Virus record (IMG/VR): IMGVR_UViG_3300046030_000054
Location: 1 to 64,000 of that record
Source: a virus
Lineage: Duplodnaviria > Caudoviricetes
Reading direction: 5' to 3' (one strand)
DNA: 64,000 bases
In this document: positions 11,012 through 53,110 of the stretch, one piece after another
How positions within the stretch are numbered: position 1 is the first letter of the stretch
Layout of the letters: each line of letters starts with the position of its first letter
Program-made: the position numbers and the translations under genes
Notes under the pieces: generated by a model
Database searches by the model: none
What the model saw: the letters and a program-made list of their open reading frames with translations, nothing else
Told to the model about the DNA's origin: nothing

Positions 11012-12411
11012 TTATTCTCCTATCAAATCCTTCATTATCGCATGAGTATCCTCTTCAGCATTAGTAAAAGGTAACAAGTACACATAAAACGACGATTTTT
11101 GCCAATGATGCTGCTGAATAACTATATTCAATTGCCTAATCGCTTGTTCCAAATCACAATTAATAGCTTGACGACACTTCTGTTTTGCTTCTTCTTGCGT
11201 GCAATCGTCTAAATCTAATTGGGTTCTAAACTTATAGCCAATAAAGATCCCATATGATGCAATATCTTCAAAGTCTGTTTCAGTTGGTGCCATTAACTTA
11301 ATAATGGTATTACTCTTATCTTCACCAAATTGTGTCCGAAGAATGGAACGGTCAACTATGTCAGTAGCCAGTACCATCTCATTGGACCGATTATTATCAA
11401 AAGTTGCTATCTTCTTCACTACATTATTAATTGCATCCTCGAGATTATTGTTTAATTGTGATGCCCCAAGGATTAGTTGATTTTTACCTTGGTCTCTTTT
11501 TAGGTATATGCCTTCGCTGTCGATCGTTCGCTTGAATTTTAAAATTTCCGCCCTGGTATAGAGTTTAAGTGCGTTATCCTCATGCTCTAAAAAATATATG
11601 CTAGCAATTCACCTAGTAAATTATTTGGAATACCACTTTTAGCATATTTTCTTAGTAAATTGGCTGCCCGTAAACCTACAACAGCTGTTTTACTAACTCC
11701 ACGGGCTATTGCGTAGCTAGTAATATTGGATGTCACTAGATTCTTTAAATTCGTATAGCTAAAAGGCAACAACTCTGGCTTCAAAACAAAAGCATGAATT
11801 GAGTTTCTATTTTTTACAGCATCTATCTCACTAGCATTAACCTGACGAAAGACTGTTGAGAACGTCTCATCTGAAACAGTTTTTGTAAATATATCCTTAT
11901 CCTCACTTTTTGTGGGGATTTTTTGTTTTCGCCTATTTTTTCTGCTCGCTACTTTTTCAAACTCTTCAGTAAATAAGTTGGCTAATAATGCTGGTACTTT
12001 ACCTCGATACACATCTGGTGAAATTCCATCCTTCTTCAATTTCTTAGCAATCAAAGTTAACTGATCTGCGCCAATTTTGTTGAAATATTCTTCCAGCGAA
12101 GATGTTTCTTTGTTTATTAAGTTCAGCAGTTTTTTAGAAGCAGATCTGGAGATTCCATCAGTGGCATACGTATTCAATGTTGATGAGGCAGGCATGGGTG
12201 AGTATTGGTTATCTGACGCATGCTCGATTATCAAGCTAACTGTTTCTTCTTTTGAAGTATCTGCCGCATCCGGTAAATAAGGATTGACCAAATCTATTAA
12301 ATAAGTGAAATTAGCTTCTTTTGCCATTTTGCTTCCCAGCTTTTTTGGAGTTTTTCGGAGTTTCATATAAAAACTCGGAGGTTGATTTATGCCCATCTTG
12401 TTATTATTCAA
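11012..12411 (-). pseudogene. hamA: Hachiman HamA-like nuclease with long N-terminal extension, split by a 1-nt frameshift in a T6 run (ORFs 11587-12411 and 11012-11419)
   Basis: Adding one T at 11589-11594 gives LGELLAYIF-LEHEDNALKLY..DSEGIYL..LILGASQL running in frame into the 11419 ORF; probable start 12327. Confidence 0.8.
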
Positions 12412-12554
12412 ATATCAGCTAGAGATTAGTGCTTAACAATAATAATTATACCAGACTGACACCGCTTTCTCGGATAATTATTTTTGCATTCGCACATTTT
12501 TTTGGCTGATAAGCATGGGATGAGTGATTAACATCCATTACTAGCATGCGCCGA

Positions 12555-12700
12555 ATTGAATAACACTCTGTAACAAAGCCACTAGTAAGGCGCTGTTGCA
12601 GTACCCAAGCGATCTCTTCGTTTAGGTCTGTTTAACACACCCTAGTGGCTTTTAATGTGCCTTCGATTCCTTCGCTTGGGAGATCCCAAACGGAGGTTTT
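12555..12700 (+). ncRNA. Putative structured 5' leader RNA (nested helices plus pseudoknot) upstream of the sigma gene
   Basis: AAGCCACTAG/CTAGTGGCTT, TGTT/AACA, loop CCCAAGCGA pairing with downstream TCGCTTGGG; compensatory changes versus the E2 copy. Confidence 0.6.
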
Positions 12701-12705
12701 ATTAA

Positions 12706-13224
12706 ATGAAGACAAATAATAGTGAGTACGAATTAGTCGGTGAACAAAATAACAAGCTAATCGTCCGTGTAAAGCATATGGGCAACCAAACAGTAGTGAT
12801 CACTAAAGCTGAAGGCAATGTCATTTTCGACTTTGACCATCAACAATATAATTCCGATCACCGAAACGAACGTCACCAAGATAAGTTCTTCAAGCAAGAT
12901 CCATCTGATCCAGATATGAATATGATGGACACCCTGGCGGACCGCGAATCTATTGAAGTCACCTCGATTTATGGTGAGGATAGCCTACTCGACAAAATCG
13001 TTGAAAAAGAGGGCCGTCAAAGTCGACAAATGTTAGCTGGGCAATTATCGACTGCCTTAGCTACCTTAACGAATAAACAAAAATATGCCGTGACTCAGTA
13101 TTACTATAATGGCGTCAAGAAAAATCAAATTGCCAAGAAGATGGGTATCAGCAAGGTTATGGCCGGTCGACATGTGAAAGCTGCTATCAAAAAGCTACGC
13201 CAATTTTACAACATTGAAGATTAA
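12706..13224 (+). CDS. Sigma-70 region-4 / ECF-like sigma factor
   Basis: C-terminal LTNKQKYAV..YYY..KKNQIAKKMGISKVMAGRHVKAAIKKLR HTH. Confidence 0.8.
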   Translation: MKTNNSEYELVGEQNNKLIVRVKHMGNQTVVITKAEGNVIFDFDHQQYNSDHRNERHQDKFFKQDPSDPDMNMMDTLADRESIEVTSIYGEDSLLDKIVEKEGRQSRQMLAGQLSTALATLTNKQKYAVTQYYYNGVKKNQIAKKMGISKVMAGRHVKAAIKKLRQFYNIED

Positions 13225-13247
13225 TTTGAGAAAAGTGGACCACAGTA

Positions 13248-13286
13248 GGTTCACTTTTTTGCTGTTTCTGGCTAATAGATGTGAGG
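13248..13286 (+). promoter_or_regulatory. Conserved motif GGTTYACTTT-N10-CTGGCWWAT, putative element-sigma promoter (overlaps a terminator-like hairpin)
   Basis: Five copies with identical spacing in the window. Confidence 0.6.
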
Positions 13287-13319
13287 AGTAACTCACGAAA
13301 CCTAACGAAAGGAGACCAG

Positions 13320-13526
13320 ATGATGGCAAATAAGGTATCAATCAAGGTCACTAAGCACCCTCACCAAGAAGGTGTTGTCATTATGCGCAACATCACTATC
13401 CGGGAACGATTGCTCCGGCTACTGCTTGGCAAGCCGCATCACTTGATGGTGATTGCGCCCGGCAAGGATGTTCAGCAGCTACAGATTAATAAGGTAAAGG
13501 AGGCTTCACATGAGTACAATGAATGA
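13320..13526 (+). CDS. Small conserved hypothetical protein
   Basis: RBS AAAGGAG before ATG 13320; near-identical paralogue 53211-53414. Confidence 0.7.
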   Translation: MMANKVSIKVTKHPHQEGVVIMRNITIRERLLRLLLGKPHHLMVIAPGKDVQQLQINKVKEASHEYNE

Positions 13527-33382: not shown

Positions 33383-35044
33383 ATGTCAACCATTACTAAA
33401 ATCCAAAGCTACCACCGTAATGTCAAGCAACTCCGTGTAGCAGCTTATTGTCGAGTTTCGACGGACAATATTGAACAGCTGGAGAGTCTTGAAAATCAAC
33501 GTGCCCATTATCAAAAGTACATTAACAACCACCCTAATTGGGAGCTGGCTAAGATCTACTATGATGAAGGAATCTCAGGCACCAAGATGACCAAGCGGAA
33601 CGCCTTAAAAGAATTACTAACTGATTGTCATAATCACCGGATTGACCTCGTGGTGACCAAATCAATTAGCCGTTTGTCACGAAATACAACTGATTGTTTG
33701 CAGATTGTCCGGGAATTACAGCAATTGAATATTCCAATTATCTTTGAGAAAGAGCATATCAATACTGGAGCAATGGCCAGTGAGTTATTTCTATCGATTC
33801 TTAGCAGTATTGCCCAGGATGAATCCCACTCAACTGCCGGAAATCTACGCTGGGCAATCAGGAAACGTTTTGCTAGTGGCAAATTCCATGTATCCTCAGC
33901 ACCCTATGGATATTCAATTGAGGATGGCAACTTAGTTATCAACCATACTGAAGCAAAGACTGTACGACAAATCTTTCAACGATTTCTAAGTGGAACATCA
34001 GCCAGTCGGATTGCTAAAGGATTGAACCATAAACACGTAGCAACAAAGCGTGGTGGACAATGGCGAAGCAACACCGTGATTAACATTTTACGAAACAGTA
34101 ATTACACCGGTGATATGCTCTGCCAGAAGACTTATAGTGATGATCAATATCACCGTCATTTTAACCAAGGTGAACTCACCCAATACTTAATTGAGGATCA
34201 TCACCCTAGTTTAGTTAACCACGAAACTTTTAACAGAGTTCAAGTTCTGCTTAAAGAAGCGGTCCAAAAGTGCCATATTGAAACTGGCAGCCATAAGTAC
34301 CAACACCACTACTTATTTTCTGGGAAAATCACTTGTGGCAATTGTGGCACTATTTTTAAGCGGCAAACACGTCCCAATAAAATTTGCTGGGCTTGTCAAA
34401 GACATCTAAGTTCCGCTAAGCAATGTCCTGTTAAAGCAGTAACTGAAGTAAGCCTAGAAGCAGCTTTCTGCAACATGATGAATAAACTCATTTACAGTAG
34501 GAAATTCTTATTACAGCCATTGTTAGCAAATTTACAAGTTCAAGCTAACAGTGATACCAACGGTCAGCTAAGTTCATTGGTCAATCAGGTTAAGGCAAAT
34601 GACCGCAAAGCAGAAACGCTAACCGAATTGATGCAATCAGGATTGCTGGATAAAGCCATCTATGTAAATCAAACGGCTCAGCTCGAACAGGATACCTACC
34701 AATGCCGCGAAAAGATTAAACAGTTTAATAGCAACAATACTGATTCGGCAAATAATTTTGAAAACGTGCGAACCCTGCTTCATTGGTGTCAACAAGGTCA
34801 AAAACTGTCAGGCTTTAATAAAGCCCCATTTCAGGACTTCGTTCAACAAATTGTAGTGAACAGTCCAAAAGAGGCGGTTTTCAAACTGAAATGCGGGTTG
34901 AGATTAACTGAGAAGTTAACCAAAGCAGCTTGCCTTGATGAACACTTTTACCGTGGGGTAATCCGCCAACGTTTCAGCGAACCAATTCGGCAAGCAGAAT
35001 ACTTGTACAGCATTATCGAAAGTGAAGGTGATTTAATTGGGTAA
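33383..35044 (+). CDS. Large serine recombinase 1
   Basis: AYCRVSTD, KSISRLSRN, recombinase domain, CGNCG zinc ribbon, coiled coil. Confidence 0.92.
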   Translation: MSTITKIQSYHRNVKQLRVAAYCRVSTDNIEQLESLENQRAHYQKYINNHPNWELAKIYYDEGISGTKMTKRNALKELLTDCHNHRIDLVVTKSISRLSRNTTDCLQIVRELQQLNIPIIFEKEHINTGAMASELFLSILSSIAQDESHSTAGNLRWAIRKRFASGKFHVSSAPYGYSIEDGNLVINHTEAKTVRQIFQRFLSGTSASRIAKGLNHKHVATKRGGQWRSNTVINILRNSNYTGDMLCQKTYSDDQYHRHFNQGELTQYLIEDHHPSLVNHETFNRVQVLLKEAVQKCHIETGSHKYQHHYLFSGKITCGNCGTIFKRQTRPNKICWACQRHLSSAKQCPVKAVTEVSLEAAFCNMMNKLIYSRKFLLQPLLANLQVQANSDTNGQLSSLVNQVKANDRKAETLTELMQSGLLDKAIYVNQTAQLEQDTYQCREKIKQFNSNNTDSANNFENVRTLLHWCQQGQKLSGFNKAPFQDFVQQIVVNSPKEAVFKLKCGLRLTEKLTKAACLDEHFYRGVIRQRFSEPIRQAEYLYSIIESEGDLIG

Positions 35045-36614
35045 AGTACGCATTATTCCCGCCCATCAGCAAAAAGGAAACAGTGTCCATCATCCACGTA
35101 GTCCACAATCTTTTGGAAAGCTTCGAGTGGCTGCATACTGCCGGGTTTCGACCGATTACGATGAGCAGGCCAGTTCTTACGAAACTCAAGTAGATCATTA
35201 CAAAGAACTAATTCAAAAGGAGCCATCCTGGGAATTTGCAGGTATTTATGCCGATGATGGGATCTCCGGAACCAATACCAAAAAACGGGAACAATTCAAT
35301 AAAATGATTGCAGCCTGTAAAGTCGGTAAGATTGACCTGATCGTTACCAAATCAATTAGCCGATTTGCCCGGAATACCATCGACTGTTTGAAATATATCC
35401 GTGACTTAAAAGCTATCAATGTTGCAATCTTCTTTGAAAAAGAAAATATCAACACCATGGATGCCAAAGGTGAAGTTTTGATTACCATCATGGCTTCCCT
35501 TGCTCAACAAGAAAGTGAGTCCTTATCGCAAAACGTCAAGATGGGGATTCAATATCGTTACCAACAAGGGAAAGTTTTCGTGAACCATAATCACTTTCTG
35601 GGTTATACCAAGGATGCTCAAGGTAACTTGGTGATTGAACCAGAAGAAGCAAAGGTCATTAAGCGTATCTTCTATAGCTACCTAAACGGAATGACGATGA
35701 AGCAAATAGCTGATTCTCTTAAAGCAGATGGTATTTTAACTGGTGGCAAAACAAAGAATTGGCGTTCTAGCAGCGTGGCCAAAATCCTGAAGAATGAAAA
35801 ATATATGGGTGATGCTCTATTACAAAAGACTTACACTGTGGACTTTCTGAACAAAAAGCGCGTAAAGAACGAAGGAATCATGCCACAGTACTATGTGGAG
35901 AACGACCACCCAGCGATTATTCCTAAATCAGTGTTCATGCAAGTCCAGCAAATTATCAAACAGCGACGTAACGGAATCACGACTAAGAACGGCAAGCACC
36001 GGCGAATTAACGGAAAATACTGCTTTTCTCAAAAAGTATTCTGCGGTAAATGCGGTGATATCTTGCAACGGAACATGTGGTATCGACCGGAAAAAGTGGC
36101 AGTCTGGCGATGTGCAAGCCGCGTAAGACGCAATAAGACTGGCCGGCGATGCATGATTCGAAACGTCAAAGAACCATTGCTGAAGGAAACCACCGTTGAA
36201 GCATTCAACCAGCTCATTGAAGGGCATGAGCTGGTCAGTAAACAAATCAAAGCTAACATCATGAAAGTCATTAAAAACTCCAAAGGTCCAACACTTGATC
36301 AAATCGACCAACAGCTGGAAGAAGTGCAAATGAAGTTGATTCAAGCTGCCAACCAGCATCAAGACTGCGACGCGCTAACCCAGCAAATTATGGACCTTCG
36401 CAAACAAAAAGAAAAAGTACAGAGTCGGGAAACTAATCAACAAGCCAAACTACACAACCTTGATGAAATCAACAAATTAGTCGAATTGCACAAGTATGGC
36501 TTAGTTGACTTTGATGAACAATTGGTTCGTCGCTTGGTAGAAAAAATCACCATCTTCCAACGCTACATGGAATTCACGTTCAAAGATGGTGAAGTAATTA
36601 GAGTTAATATGTGA
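35037..36614 (+). CDS. Large serine recombinase 2
   Basis: AYCRVSTD, KSISRFARN, CGKCG zinc ribbon, coiled coil. Confidence 0.92.
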   Translation: MGKVRIIPAHQQKGNSVHHPRSPQSFGKLRVAAYCRVSTDYDEQASSYETQVDHYKELIQKEPSWEFAGIYADDGISGTNTKKREQFNKMIAACKVGKIDLIVTKSISRFARNTIDCLKYIRDLKAINVAIFFEKENINTMDAKGEVLITIMASLAQQESESLSQNVKMGIQYRYQQGKVFVNHNHFLGYTKDAQGNLVIEPEEAKVIKRIFYSYLNGMTMKQIADSLKADGILTGGKTKNWRSSSVAKILKNEKYMGDALLQKTYTVDFLNKKRVKNEGIMPQYYVENDHPAIIPKSVFMQVQQIIKQRRNGITTKNGKHRRINGKYCFSQKVFCGKCGDILQRNMWYRPEKVAVWRCASRVRRNKTGRRCMIRNVKEPLLKETTVEAFNQLIEGHELVSKQIKANIMKVIKNSKGPTLDQIDQQLEEVQMKLIQAANQHQDCDALTQQIMDLRKQKEKVQSRETNQQAKLHNLDEINKLVELHKYGLVDFDEQLVRRLVEKITIFQRYMEFTFKDGEVIRVNM

Positions 36615-50801: not shown

Positions 50802-51033
50802 TGCTTATCACACCTGTTTCTTCATCAATGCAAATCCTGTTTAATATAAACAAACAATCCAACGCCTCCACAAACTCACCCACATCATCAAAATATCTTC
50901 TTGTTCTCTTATAAAGATCTTGTGGGTTCATAGCTTGTTCGTTTAGTTTTTTCATTATTTTAGGAAGACTTGCTAATGTACTTTCCTTATAGTCAGTAAC
51001 TTTACTGGGCATTTTCAACTTCAAACACCTCAC
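50785..51033 (-). CDS. lmuC: ABC-3C middle component
   Basis: Small ORF between effector and ATPase: PSKVT.YKES..ALDCLFILN.I. Confidence 0.7.
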   Translation of the reverse strand: MRCLKLKMPSKVTDYKESTLASLPKIMKKLNEQAMNPQDLYKRTRRYFDDVGEFVEALDCLFILNRICIDEETGVISSVKTN

Positions 51034-52219
51034 AATTTTGAACGAAAAAAGCCACTATAATTCTGGAAGCTTCTGAATAATCCTGAGGCAATTGTTCTTT
51101 AGCAAGAATCCAATCAGCCAAGTGATTAAATATTTCTTCCTGATCTAGTTGCTCACGCTTAAATTTAAAATAGGCTAACTTTATGGTGGTAGCTAATTCA
51201 TCAAAAGAAAAATCTGGACCTTCCAAATTAGAAAATTGATCTTTGATTTTGTTGTAATAACCCGAAACGTAATAACTAACAGCCCCTTGTAAGGCATAAT
51301 CATGACTTATCTTTTCTTCTACGGTATGTGCATCATAATCAATAACAGAATTCGCTAAGTTTGGTTTAACCTTCTTTAGCCCCTGAATCACTTTAGTCAA
51401 TTTTGCTTCTAAAGTTAGCTGATTTAGGCCTTGAGCGATTTGTTTTTCATTAATAACATGTTGTTTTTTCTGAATCAACCGTTGATAATCATTTAAGTTA
51501 GGATTATTGAGATAAACATTCGCACAATTTAAACATAATGGGATTTTATTTTCTAAGGCATCTGAATTTTCAGGTGCCTTTTTTATTTTGGCAAATTTAG
51601 CTTTTTCCTTTTCATTTAAGTTGTCAGGAAAGATATGGACAACATCATATCCTGCTATGGCATTGCTAATACCATTCTTAATCAAGCTCTCTCCACATAA
51701 AGGGAATTCTATATCGACATCATGAAGTAAACGCAAGTTATCGATGAAATTCTGATTTGTTTTGACATCATTAGTTTTTACAGAGGTTTCACCATTTTTG
51801 AACTTATTCAAAAAAGCTTTCATTATTTTGAAGCATACTTCACCCAAAGAACTTGTAGTTACTTCAAATTGCTCCTCACGCAACTTATTTCGAATGCTTT
51901 CTCTTGCTCCTGGGGCTGAAAAATTAATTTCGTCTACAAACTTTTTCCCATTACTAATTCTGCTAAGTAACTCTTTTGCATCTTTTTTAGGGATTGGCCT
52001 GGAGCCAATACAGTACTTGTTAATGGTGTCGGCTACTCTGCCTGCAAAAGGATTCAAGTCCCCACTTTGTGCTTTTTCATCCTCCACATCAGTCTGTGGA
52101 GTACGAATGATCAAATCTATTAAATGACAAAAGAATTTAGGACGCCCCTTATTATCTTTGCTCTCATCAGGGCTACCTAAATATGTCCATAGCATGTCAA
52201 AAAAATCAGAGAATTCCAT
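51002..52219 (-). CDS. lmuA: ABC-3C effector: N-terminal regulator-like domain + HNH-like nuclease + ABC-3C C-terminal domain
   Basis: PLCG..VVHIFP..IPLCLNCAN; C-terminal A.RIIVAFFVQNCEVFE. Confidence 0.7.
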   Translation of the reverse strand: MEFSDFFDMLWTYLGSPDESKDNKGRPKFFCHLIDLIIRTPQTDVEDEKAQSGDLNPFAGRVADTINKYCIGSRPIPKKDAKELLSRISNGKKFVDEINFSAPGARESIRNKLREEQFEVTTSSLGEVCFKIMKAFLNKFKNGETSVKTNDVKTNQNFIDNLRLLHDVDIEFPLCGESLIKNGISNAIAGYDVVHIFPDNLNEKEKAKFAKIKKAPENSDALENKIPLCLNCANVYLNNPNLNDYQRLIQKKQHVINEKQIAQGLNQLTLEAKLTKVIQGLKKVKPNLANSVIDYDAHTVEEKISHDYALQGAVSYYVSGYYNKIKDQFSNLEGPDFSFDELATTIKLAYFKFKREQLDQEEIFNHLADWILAKEQLPQDYSEASRIIVAFFVQNCEVFEVENAQ

Positions 52220-52303
52220 ATCAATCACGCTCAACTTTCGGACAAAAAAGGGCAGATTTTGTCCCAAACTGTCCGAGTTCATATTTTCTTTTCAAATATA
52301 CTG

Positions 52304-52337
52304 ATTGTGAATTAAAGATAATAATTCAATTCACAAT
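52304..52337. promoter_or_regulatory. Inverted repeat in the divergent promoter region (candidate operator)
   Basis: ATTGTGAATT-N14-AATTCACAAT. Confidence 0.45.
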
Positions 52338-52449
52338 TTAAGTATATCGTTTACATACACGGTTCTCAATATTTAATATGCGAACGCGAATTTTATCTAT
52401 TGATTCAGCATGCATCGTCAAGCTAACGGTGTTCCAGCATGCTTCTTAA

Positions 52450-52585
52450 TTGAATACTTTTACTGCAACCAGCCACTGGAAGGTTTGCTGCAGTCCCGAA
52501 ACGAATGAGTTTTGGACTGCTTAGCACACTACCAGTGGCTCTTTTGGTCCTTTGCCTTCGTTTCGGGAGACCGGAACGGAGGCTT
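52450..52585 (+). ncRNA. Putative structured leader RNA, paralogue of 12555-12700
   Basis: AGCCACTGG/CCAGTGGCT, TGCT/AGCA, GCAGTCC/GGACTGC, pseudoknot CCCGAAACGAA/TTCGTTTCGGG. Confidence 0.62.
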
Positions 52586-52591
52586 TTATTA

Positions 52592-53110
52592 ATGAAGAAA
52601 AGTAACAGTGAGTACGAATTAATCGGTGAAGAAAATGGAAAGCTAGTCGTTAGAGTCAAGCACATGGGAAACCAAGTAATCACTATCACCAAGGAACAGG
52701 GTAACGTTGCCTTTGACTTTGATCATAAGCAATATAATTCAGATCATCGAAACGAACGGCATCAGGATAAATTCTTCGCTAATTCACAGGATGATCCAGC
52801 TATTAATGCAATCGACACAATAGCGGATCGTAGTTCCATGGAAATCACATCTGTTTACAGCAAGGATAACTTATTGGATTCATTAATTGAAAAGGAAGAC
52901 CAGCGGTACCGCCAGCAATTGATTGTACAATTACCAGCTGCCCTGGCAACTTTAACTAATAAACAACGAAATGCCGTCCTCGGCTATTACTGCAAGGGAC
53001 TTAAGAAGAAAGAAATTGCTGAGAAAATGAGTATTAGCCCAACCATGGTGGGAAGACATGTTAAAGCTGGATTAGTAAAATTGCGTAGTTTTTATAACAA
53101 AAAAGAATAA
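52592..53110 (+). CDS. Sigma-70 region-4 / ECF-like sigma factor
   Basis: Paralogue of 12706-13224; RBS CGGAGG before ATG 52592. Confidence 0.8.
   Translation: MKKSNSEYELIGEENGKLVVRVKHMGNQVITITKEQGNVAFDFDHKQYNSDHRNERHQDKFFANSQDDPAINAIDTIADRSSMEITSVYSKDNLLDSLIEKEDQRYRQQLIVQLPAALATLTNKQRNAVLGYYCKGLKKKEIAEKMSISPTMVGRHVKAGLVKLRSFYNKKE

Follow-up and report, generated by a model that had tools for sequence, protein, structure and literature searches.

The question raised by this locus is whether two related regions, each in front of a putative regulator gene, encode an RNA that controls the gene behind it, and through which structure. The window, i.e. the whole stretch of 64,000 nt that was analysed, corresponds to positions 1–64,000 of IMGVR_UViG_3300046030_000054, and the two leader copies compared in it are referred to as E1 and E2. 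Leaders and downstream genes were located as follows:

12513–12705, + strand: E1 leader, ~190 nt
12706–13224, + strand: gene putatively regulated by the E1 leader, 172 aa, with matches to Pfam PF08281 and PF04545 (sigma-70 region-4 HTH domain only)
52407–52591, + strand: E2 leader, ~190 nt
52592–53110, + strand: gene putatively regulated by the E2 leader, 172 aa, region-4 HTH, 64% identical to the E1 protein

The first-pass annotation had spoken of a sigma gene at this place; the region-4 HTH domain is indeed present, and the protein carries that domain only. Using tblastn, the sigma protein gave no match in the INPHARED phage collection.

The helices reported by the same annotation were all read in the sequence of both copies, namely the outer helix (E1 12578–12585/12642–12649; E2 52472–52479/52532–52539), the inner 4-bp helix (TGTT/AACA in E1 versus TGCT/AGCA in E2), in which pairing is kept upon exchange of T/C and A/G, and the loop-to-tail pairing (E1 12604–12612/12672–12680, 9 bp; E2 52495–52505/52557–52567, 11 bp). 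The 3′ strand of the latter was found 10 nt (E1) and 9 nt (E2) ahead of CGGAGG, near the 10–12 nt originally given. In a pattern scan, the outer-helix pattern occurred exactly twice in 64 kb at an expectation of 0.00, and folding z-scores against shuffles were −5.7 for E1 and −7.2 for E2. The proposed extent of 12555–12700 had to be enlarged, as a further hairpin (P0) and a linker start upstream of it. The following parts were assigned:

12513–12549, + strand: E1 hairpin P0, outer stem 12513–12517/12545–12549, inner stem 12518–12522/12532–12536
12554–12563, + strand: E1 single-stranded linker AAUUGAAUAA, from alignments
12575–12652, + strand: E1 long hairpin P1, from MFE fold, alifold and pair counts
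12604–12612, + strand: E1 strand X, 5′ side of the P1 apex, with X′ (12618–12627) or Y as partner
12669–12680, + strand: E1 strand Y (anti-SD arm), of which 12672–12680 pairs with X and all of 12669–12680 with Z
12685–12696, + strand: E1 strand Z, containing the RBS GGAGG (12692–12696); T-run at 12697–12700, start codon at 12706
52407–52443, + strand: E2 hairpin P0, 9-nt loop 52418–52426 with AGCU core
52448–52457, + strand: E2 conserved linker, from alignments
52471–52540, + strand: E2 long hairpin P1, with X at 52495–52505 and X′ at 52509–52517
52554–52583, + strand: E2 RBS-sequestering hairpin, 13 bp, Y arm 52554–52566, Z arm 52571–52583, GGAGG at 52578–52582

P1 of E1 is composed of the outer helix, a variable middle helix, a GCAG/CUGU helix and an apical stem (12603–12612/12618–12627). 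The hairpin Y:Z, which buries the RBS, is present in the minimum-energy and in the consensus folds of the leaders, and GGAGG stands 9–10 nt before the start codon. In E2 this hairpin is followed by a T-run and the start codon (52592), and it was scored as terminator-like by the terminator scan, whereas the E1 hairpin was not. Upstream ORFs in the leader are just ATG frames of 2–5 codons, which are not conserved across E1, E2 and the members of the Rfam family RF02960 discussed below.

Since strand Y is common to both helices, X:Y and Y:Z are mutually exclusive. The pairing that had been described as a pseudoknot is real. Its 3′ strand doubles as the anti-SD arm of the RBS hairpin, and for this reason the pairing is better understood as one arm of a switch. 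Calculated duplex energies (kcal/mol) were as follows:

X:Y: E1 −15.3, E2 −16.6
X:X′: E1 −6.9, E2 −9.1
Y:Z: E1 −15.6, E2 −22.8

By these values X complements Y better than its local partner X′. The masked state (X:X′ together with Y:Z) is the MFE fold, and forcing X:Y in a nested fold costs 11–18 kcal/mol.

From this arrangement the following course of events is proposed. A promoter ~20 nt upstream would transcribe each element with its ~190-nt leader; in the ground state X would be locked in the apex of P1 and Y:Z would mask the RBS, so that the region-4 regulator is not made, and in the Lactobacillaceae clade, where a T-run follows the hairpin, transcription may end there too. Capture of Y by X (the loop-to-tail pseudoknot, possibly formed between two RNA copies) would free the RBS, upon which the first early gene could be translated. 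As a whole explanation, a diverged leader of the DUF2800-RNA lineage (RF02960) that acts as an off-by-default translational switch, with X:Y capture freeing the RBS, is considered probable; within it, the off-by-default state, the action in cis and the direction of switching are what we infer from the competing helices. A pairing of X′ with Z is also open to RF02960-type members, in which the RBS would therefore not necessarily be released by X:Y capture, and something more may be required for the open state.

Riboswitches of the ZTP/pfl, SAM-II and preQ1-II types have a pseudoknot that competes against the expression platform. The window leaders resemble them in setting a loop-to-tail pairing against a terminator or RBS-sequestering hairpin, with one strand contested, and differ in that X itself is locked in a local stem; similarity in sequence or fold and an Rfam match to these classes were not found. 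The put RNAs of phage HK022 are two-hairpin, cis-acting RNAs that modify RNA polymerase. A cis-acting two-hairpin RNA just downstream of a phage early promoter is the common trait here, whereas put RNAs are without an RBS-masking platform, and no similarity to them was detected.

Alternatively, X:Y might be constitutive within one compact, static structure that confers stability, acts as a ribosome standby site or enhances translation, with Y:Z as a folding intermediate or irrelevant. X:Y is indeed a perfect 9–11 bp duplex, stronger than X:X′ and kept in every class of leader, as such a fold would predict; Y:Z, however, is equally conserved with compensatory changes, always spans GGAGG and belongs to the minimum-energy state, and X:X′ covaries between classes. 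That three mutually exclusive helices are all conserved argues for a switch and renders a static fold unlikely.

Support for an RNA, as opposed to a DNA element, was obtained from 24 distinct leaders, which were collected from Lactobacillaceae genomes and IMG/VR proviruses via the sigma-like protein and a core DNA pattern. In these, 88–91% of cells were paired versus 32–45% with slid partners; for the nested structure the values were 88.5% versus 37–45%, and changes on both sides were counted at 16 pairs, including all 10 pairs of P0. For X:Y the paired share was 99.1% of cells, two columns being compensatory, and X:X′ also covaries between classes. Cells with G·U outnumbered those with A·C by 140:20 in these leaders, and a second count gave 78:40. 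A covariance model built from the Lactobacillaceae-type leaders (R1) scored the window copies with 203 and 180 bits on the + strand versus ~20 bits on the − strand, and found only the E1 and E2 copies in the 76-kb provirus record. The excess of G·U together with the strand-asymmetric scores indicates that the structure is an RNA read from the + strand.

These data bear on a DNA-level reading, in which the inverted repeats would serve as operators, origins or recombination sites and be recognised as double-stranded DNA or cruciforms. It would fit the location in the space separating a divergent gene pair, where the conserved module has its left edge, P0 being an inverted repeat with a palindromic centre, and the separate operator-like palindrome of E2 (52304–52337). 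A 7:1 excess of G·U over A·C, strand-asymmetric scores, a long-range three-way complementarity that is preserved with its bulges by compensatory change, and the coincidence of the 3′ arm with the RBS all speak against it, and we regard a DNA-level element as very improbable.

For the 151 Lactobacillaceae species genomes sampled, strong R1 copies were obtained in seven. The genome of Lactobacillus selangorensis (G001 contig C23) contains an E1-type and an E2-type leader at 562–765 and 13203–13395 (L173, L179), on the same strand and 12.6 kb apart, which means that paired sister elements recur outside the IMG/VR record.

The assignment to a known family was approached via Rfam. At gathering thresholds the whole window gave no match, and to this extent the earlier statement that the leader could not be assigned to a known Rfam family is correct; it does not stand at relaxed thresholds, where the search leads to RF02960, the DUF2800 RNA (model length 158 positions, gathering cut-off 60.2 bits). 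With this model, E2 gave a full-length match of 22.6 bits, well apart from the cut-off of 60.2, and E1 gave no match at E ≤ 10. We attribute RF02960 to Weinberg et al. 2017 (PMC5737381), a survey of 224 motifs. The DUF2800 RNA is not named in its main text, and in the literature searched DUF2800 was not mentioned as an RNA motif. Rfam types RF02960 as Cis-reg.

For comparison, true RF02960 members were fetched from IMG/VR by a core pattern derived from the Rfam consensus, giving 36 loci, 18 of which were tested and all scored 112–161 bits. R1 finds true RF02960 members at the right place and over the full length with 16–37 bits. Conversely, a covariance model built from 16 true RF02960 members only, plus their downstream platform (R2), scored E2 with 46.7 bits (E = 6e-9), E1-type relatives with 24–35 bits and E1 itself with only 11 bits (filters off; E = 0.004 in 601 nt). 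E1 was placed in the DUF2800-RNA lineage because its kinship with E2 and with the E1-type relatives is clear.

The likeness comprises two hairpins, the first of which has a 9-nt loop and is aligned with P0 of E1, and an A/U-rich linker that E1, E2, RF02960 (ACAAnUnAAUA) and every other class seen have in common. An apical core of the GCAnUCC...GGACUGC type follows in hairpin 2 (GCAAUCCGAAACGG...GGACUGC), to which E2 is a close match; the core of E1 is more diverged, yet homologous to E2 column by column. The reciprocal covariance-model matches, the position at the head of a regulator/DUF2800/SSB/PolA module and the same X/Y/Z platform downstream complete the picture. The synteny of leader, small regulator, small ORF, DUF2800, Enc34-type SSB and PolA is the same in the window and at RF02960 loci, and across 80 DUF2800 loci from IMG/VR leader-model matches lie ~1.1 kb upstream of the DUF2800 gene. 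Differences from RF02960 are a longer, continuous outer helix of P1, smaller internal loops, an X without SD-like GGAG in the E1 type, the Lactobacillaceae host clade, and a loop palindrome that is degenerate in both window copies. On these grounds we classify the window leaders with the DUF2800-RNA lineage, within which they form a subfamily that has diverged; by Rfam's own criterion they are not members. A hit to a described Rfam family had been named in advance as something that would remove novelty, and with this diverged kinship most of it is gone. What is known is an orphan Rfam motif, RF02960, which is extended here by the subfamily, the platform and the palindromic loop.

A search with RF02960 of 151 sampled genomes of the phylum yielded no member above the cut-off and two weak matches (L028, L029). 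L028 was discarded as a relative, being a pair of terminator-like hairpins. L029 (1497–1692, G009 contig C21) represents a further leader class with the same linker, a UCGCGA loop palindrome, the X/Y pair AAGAGGA/UCCUCUU and an RBS hairpin without T-run.

The X/Y/Z platform is family-wide and absent from the catalogued Rfam model. In true RF02960 members it lies directly past the last position of the model. Counted back from the start codon, an apical X stands at ~100 nt and Y, perfectly complementary to it, at ~35 nt; a Z strand with GGAGG pairs with Y. Among the 16 true members 98.6% of the X:Y cells were paired and two columns showed compensatory change, and Y:Z and the apical stem covary too. 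X:Y is also kept in other leader classes in front of DUF2800 modules, though with wholly different letters: X reads CCCAAGCGA in E1, CGAAACGGAG in RF02960, and GGAAUGGAG, GCCGAAACAGAG, GCCGAAAUGGAG and GAGAUGGAGA in the further classes, each with an exact complement at Y. A permutation test was carried out on 32 sequence classes; the X and Y windows were defined by a covariance-model alignment in which X:Y is not encoded. The own X:Y duplex averaged −16.6 kcal/mol versus −11.7 kcal/mol for foreign pairs, and 0 of 20000 permutations were as good (p < 5e-5, a value that overstates independence as the classes are related). In a merged alignment the model sets the E2-type X one column out of register.

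A different leader architecture was observed upstream of other DUF2800 modules (L108 1320–1556, L129 1080–1314, L104 1330–1563 and L101 540–771), in the order SD-like GGAGCC strand, terminator-like hairpin, complement of the GGAGCC strand and AAGGAGCC RBS. These leaders follow the same decoy/anti-SD/SD logic, with a fold that appears unrelated.

The presence of T-runs raised the possibility that transcription ends at the Y:Z hairpin. T-runs of at least 4 follow the hairpin in 22 of the 24 Lactobacillaceae leaders, and T-runs of at least 5 in 8 of 16 RF02960 members; as half of the true members are without one, RBS masking, and not termination, is the conserved feature. The same counts enter the view that the product is a stable, stand-alone ncRNA of ~200 nt, which ends at the Y:Z hairpin with its T-run and acts in trans or as a dimer on, e.g., RNA polymerase, host factors or the sister element; any control over the gene behind it would then be secondary. 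Besides the terminator-like hairpin of E2 and the T-run in 22 of 24 clade members, the palindromic P0 loops found family-wide, the joint occurrence of two sister elements here and in one sampled genome, and an RNA-library contig spanning just 12506–12722 agree with it. Contig ends, however, say nothing on RNA ends, half of the RF02960 members have no T-run, the 3′ arm of the hairpin is the RBS of the next gene in every class, and the leader always lies immediately 5′ of the region-4 regulator gene. A stand-alone ncRNA is thus improbable as the general account; a released stand-alone RNA within the Lactobacillaceae clade is possible.

The RNA-library contig matches the window with zero differences and, being assembled, is uninformative on starts, ends and strand; contigs of this kind over the leader are weakly compatible with transcription. 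Promoter-like sites were found by consensus scan only, and such matches occur at about chance frequency:

12456–12484, + strand: E1 promoter-like site, CTGACA, 17 nt, TATTTT
52350–52379, + strand: E2 promoter-like site, TTTACA, 18 nt, TAATAT

The predicted start of E1 is near 12491, ~20 nt before P0, and its −10-like block is conserved in position in the relatives.

A structured, cis-acting RNA in front of the regulator gene, as the first-pass annotation had proposed, is hence well supported by compensatory changes, a 7:1 ratio of G·U over A·C, strand-specific model scores and a predicted promoter upstream, and moreover by the leader being conserved better than the downstream protein. Between E1 and L033 the leaders are 76% identical and the region-4 proteins 22% identical, which marks the leader as an independent module. 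Pairwise BLASTP of the first ORFs of the window versus those of RF02960 loci gave no significant similarity. The ribozyme offered as one option of that proposal found no support: nothing beyond the presence of a pseudoknotted fold would suggest self-cleavage, no Rfam ribozyme family matched even at E ≤ 10, and architecture and context are those of RF02960 with its Cis-reg type, which leaves a self-cleaving ribozyme hardly credible. For a tRNA or tmRNA reading no support was found.

As the trigger of the off-by-default switch preferred here, a small ligand is conceivable and is put forward tentatively. Of the features of a metabolite-binding riboswitch, conserved unpaired positions and a switchable platform are present in the leaders. 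A protein is a rather doubtful candidate, and RNA–RNA kissing or concentration on the one hand and a purely kinetic or co-transcriptional mechanism on the other are both unlikely, to the same degree.

The kissing option arises from the loop of P0, which, in the model-defined alignment of the whole family, nearly always comprises 9 nt with a central self-complementary hexamer. Loop palindromes of hexamer length or longer include UGAUCA, UUGAUCAA, UGGCCA, UCAUGA, GCAUGC, GUGCAC, UCGCGA and CUGGCCAG, and a Watson–Crick palindrome of at least 6 nt was present in 19 of 32 unique model-defined loops versus 2.6 expected from shuffles. The feature is weak in the window: the E1 loop (12523–12531, 9 nt) has a central UGAUUA that is self-complementary only via G·U pairs, and E2 has a 4-nt AGCU core. 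In RF02960, hairpin 1 has an internal 3′ bulge and a conserved 9-nt loop with the consensus CUGAUCA, set against UGAUUA in E1 and AAGCUA in E2, both on a 9-nt loop of hairpin 1, and the near E1-type relatives carry UGAUCA.

The HIV-1 DIS is a kissing loop of 9 nt with a central self-complementary sequence of 6 nt. The P0 loop of the family shares with it the 9-nt length, the 6-nt palindrome and the 2+6+1 layout, and it covaries yet stays palindromic; there is no homology between the two, dimerisation is a hypothesis here, and the window copies show G·U pairing only (E1) and a 4-nt core (E2). ROOL, GOLLD and OLE RNAs form homo-oligomers partly via kissing loops (bioRxiv 10.1101/2024.12.08.627333). 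They, too, are orphan structured bacterial RNAs, with intermolecular contacts conserved through covariation, but they are far larger, are not 5′ leaders and have no demonstrated relation in sequence or fold to the window leaders. The palindromes suggest RNA–RNA kissing between two copies, with dimerisation itself taken as a hypothesis only. An extended version, in which kissing of the P0 loops of two copies lets X capture Y, perhaps in trans, and thereby unmasks the RBS, would make a concentration-sensing switch, and its probability is judged low. If it were true, synthesis of the first early regulator would wait until leader transcripts exceed a threshold, giving an ultrasensitive commitment step in a phage-like element without an obvious CI/Cro pair.

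Across a large group of phages and phage-like elements of Firmicutes, the early/replication operon is headed by the DUF2800 RNA, an orphan motif. The family extends well past the detection range of the Rfam model, into Lactobacillaceae elements and several further classes, and the catalogued RF02960 model ends just short of the conserved RBS-masking platform. With three mutually exclusive helices conserved throughout the family, the motif can now be tested as an off-by-default switch on the first regulator, and the palindromic loop offers a concrete, testable hypothesis of RNA–RNA recognition. An extended seed alignment would let annotation pipelines detect DUF2800-type leaders.

Concerning the genetic context, element E1 runs in the order leader, region-4 regulator, DUF2800 nuclease, SSB-like protein, PolA, DUF7768, D5-type primase, SNF2 helicase, HNH, small terminase, methylase, large terminase, portal, capsid and two large serine recombinases; the latter are adjoining genes at 33383–36614, with which the element ends. 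No CI-like gene adjoins either window leader. The genes divergent from the leaders (11012–12411 and 51002–52282, − strand) are of defence type and not of repressor type, encoding a HamA fragment (E1) and an ABC-3C CTD11 protein (E2). The divergent E2 genes have a perfect 10-nt inverted repeat (ATTGTGAATT ... AATTCACAAT, 52304–52337) between them, shortly before the promoter-like site, and it looks like an operator; a match of this stretch to CRISPR-DR50 was rejected as spurious. Directly past the stop codon of the E1 regulator, a hairpin between an A-run and a T-run (13223–13275) scored 25.9 bits on the − strand with STnc320, the model of a terminator-like sRNA. Possibly it stops transcription from both sides and thereby insulates the regulator gene against the replication genes.
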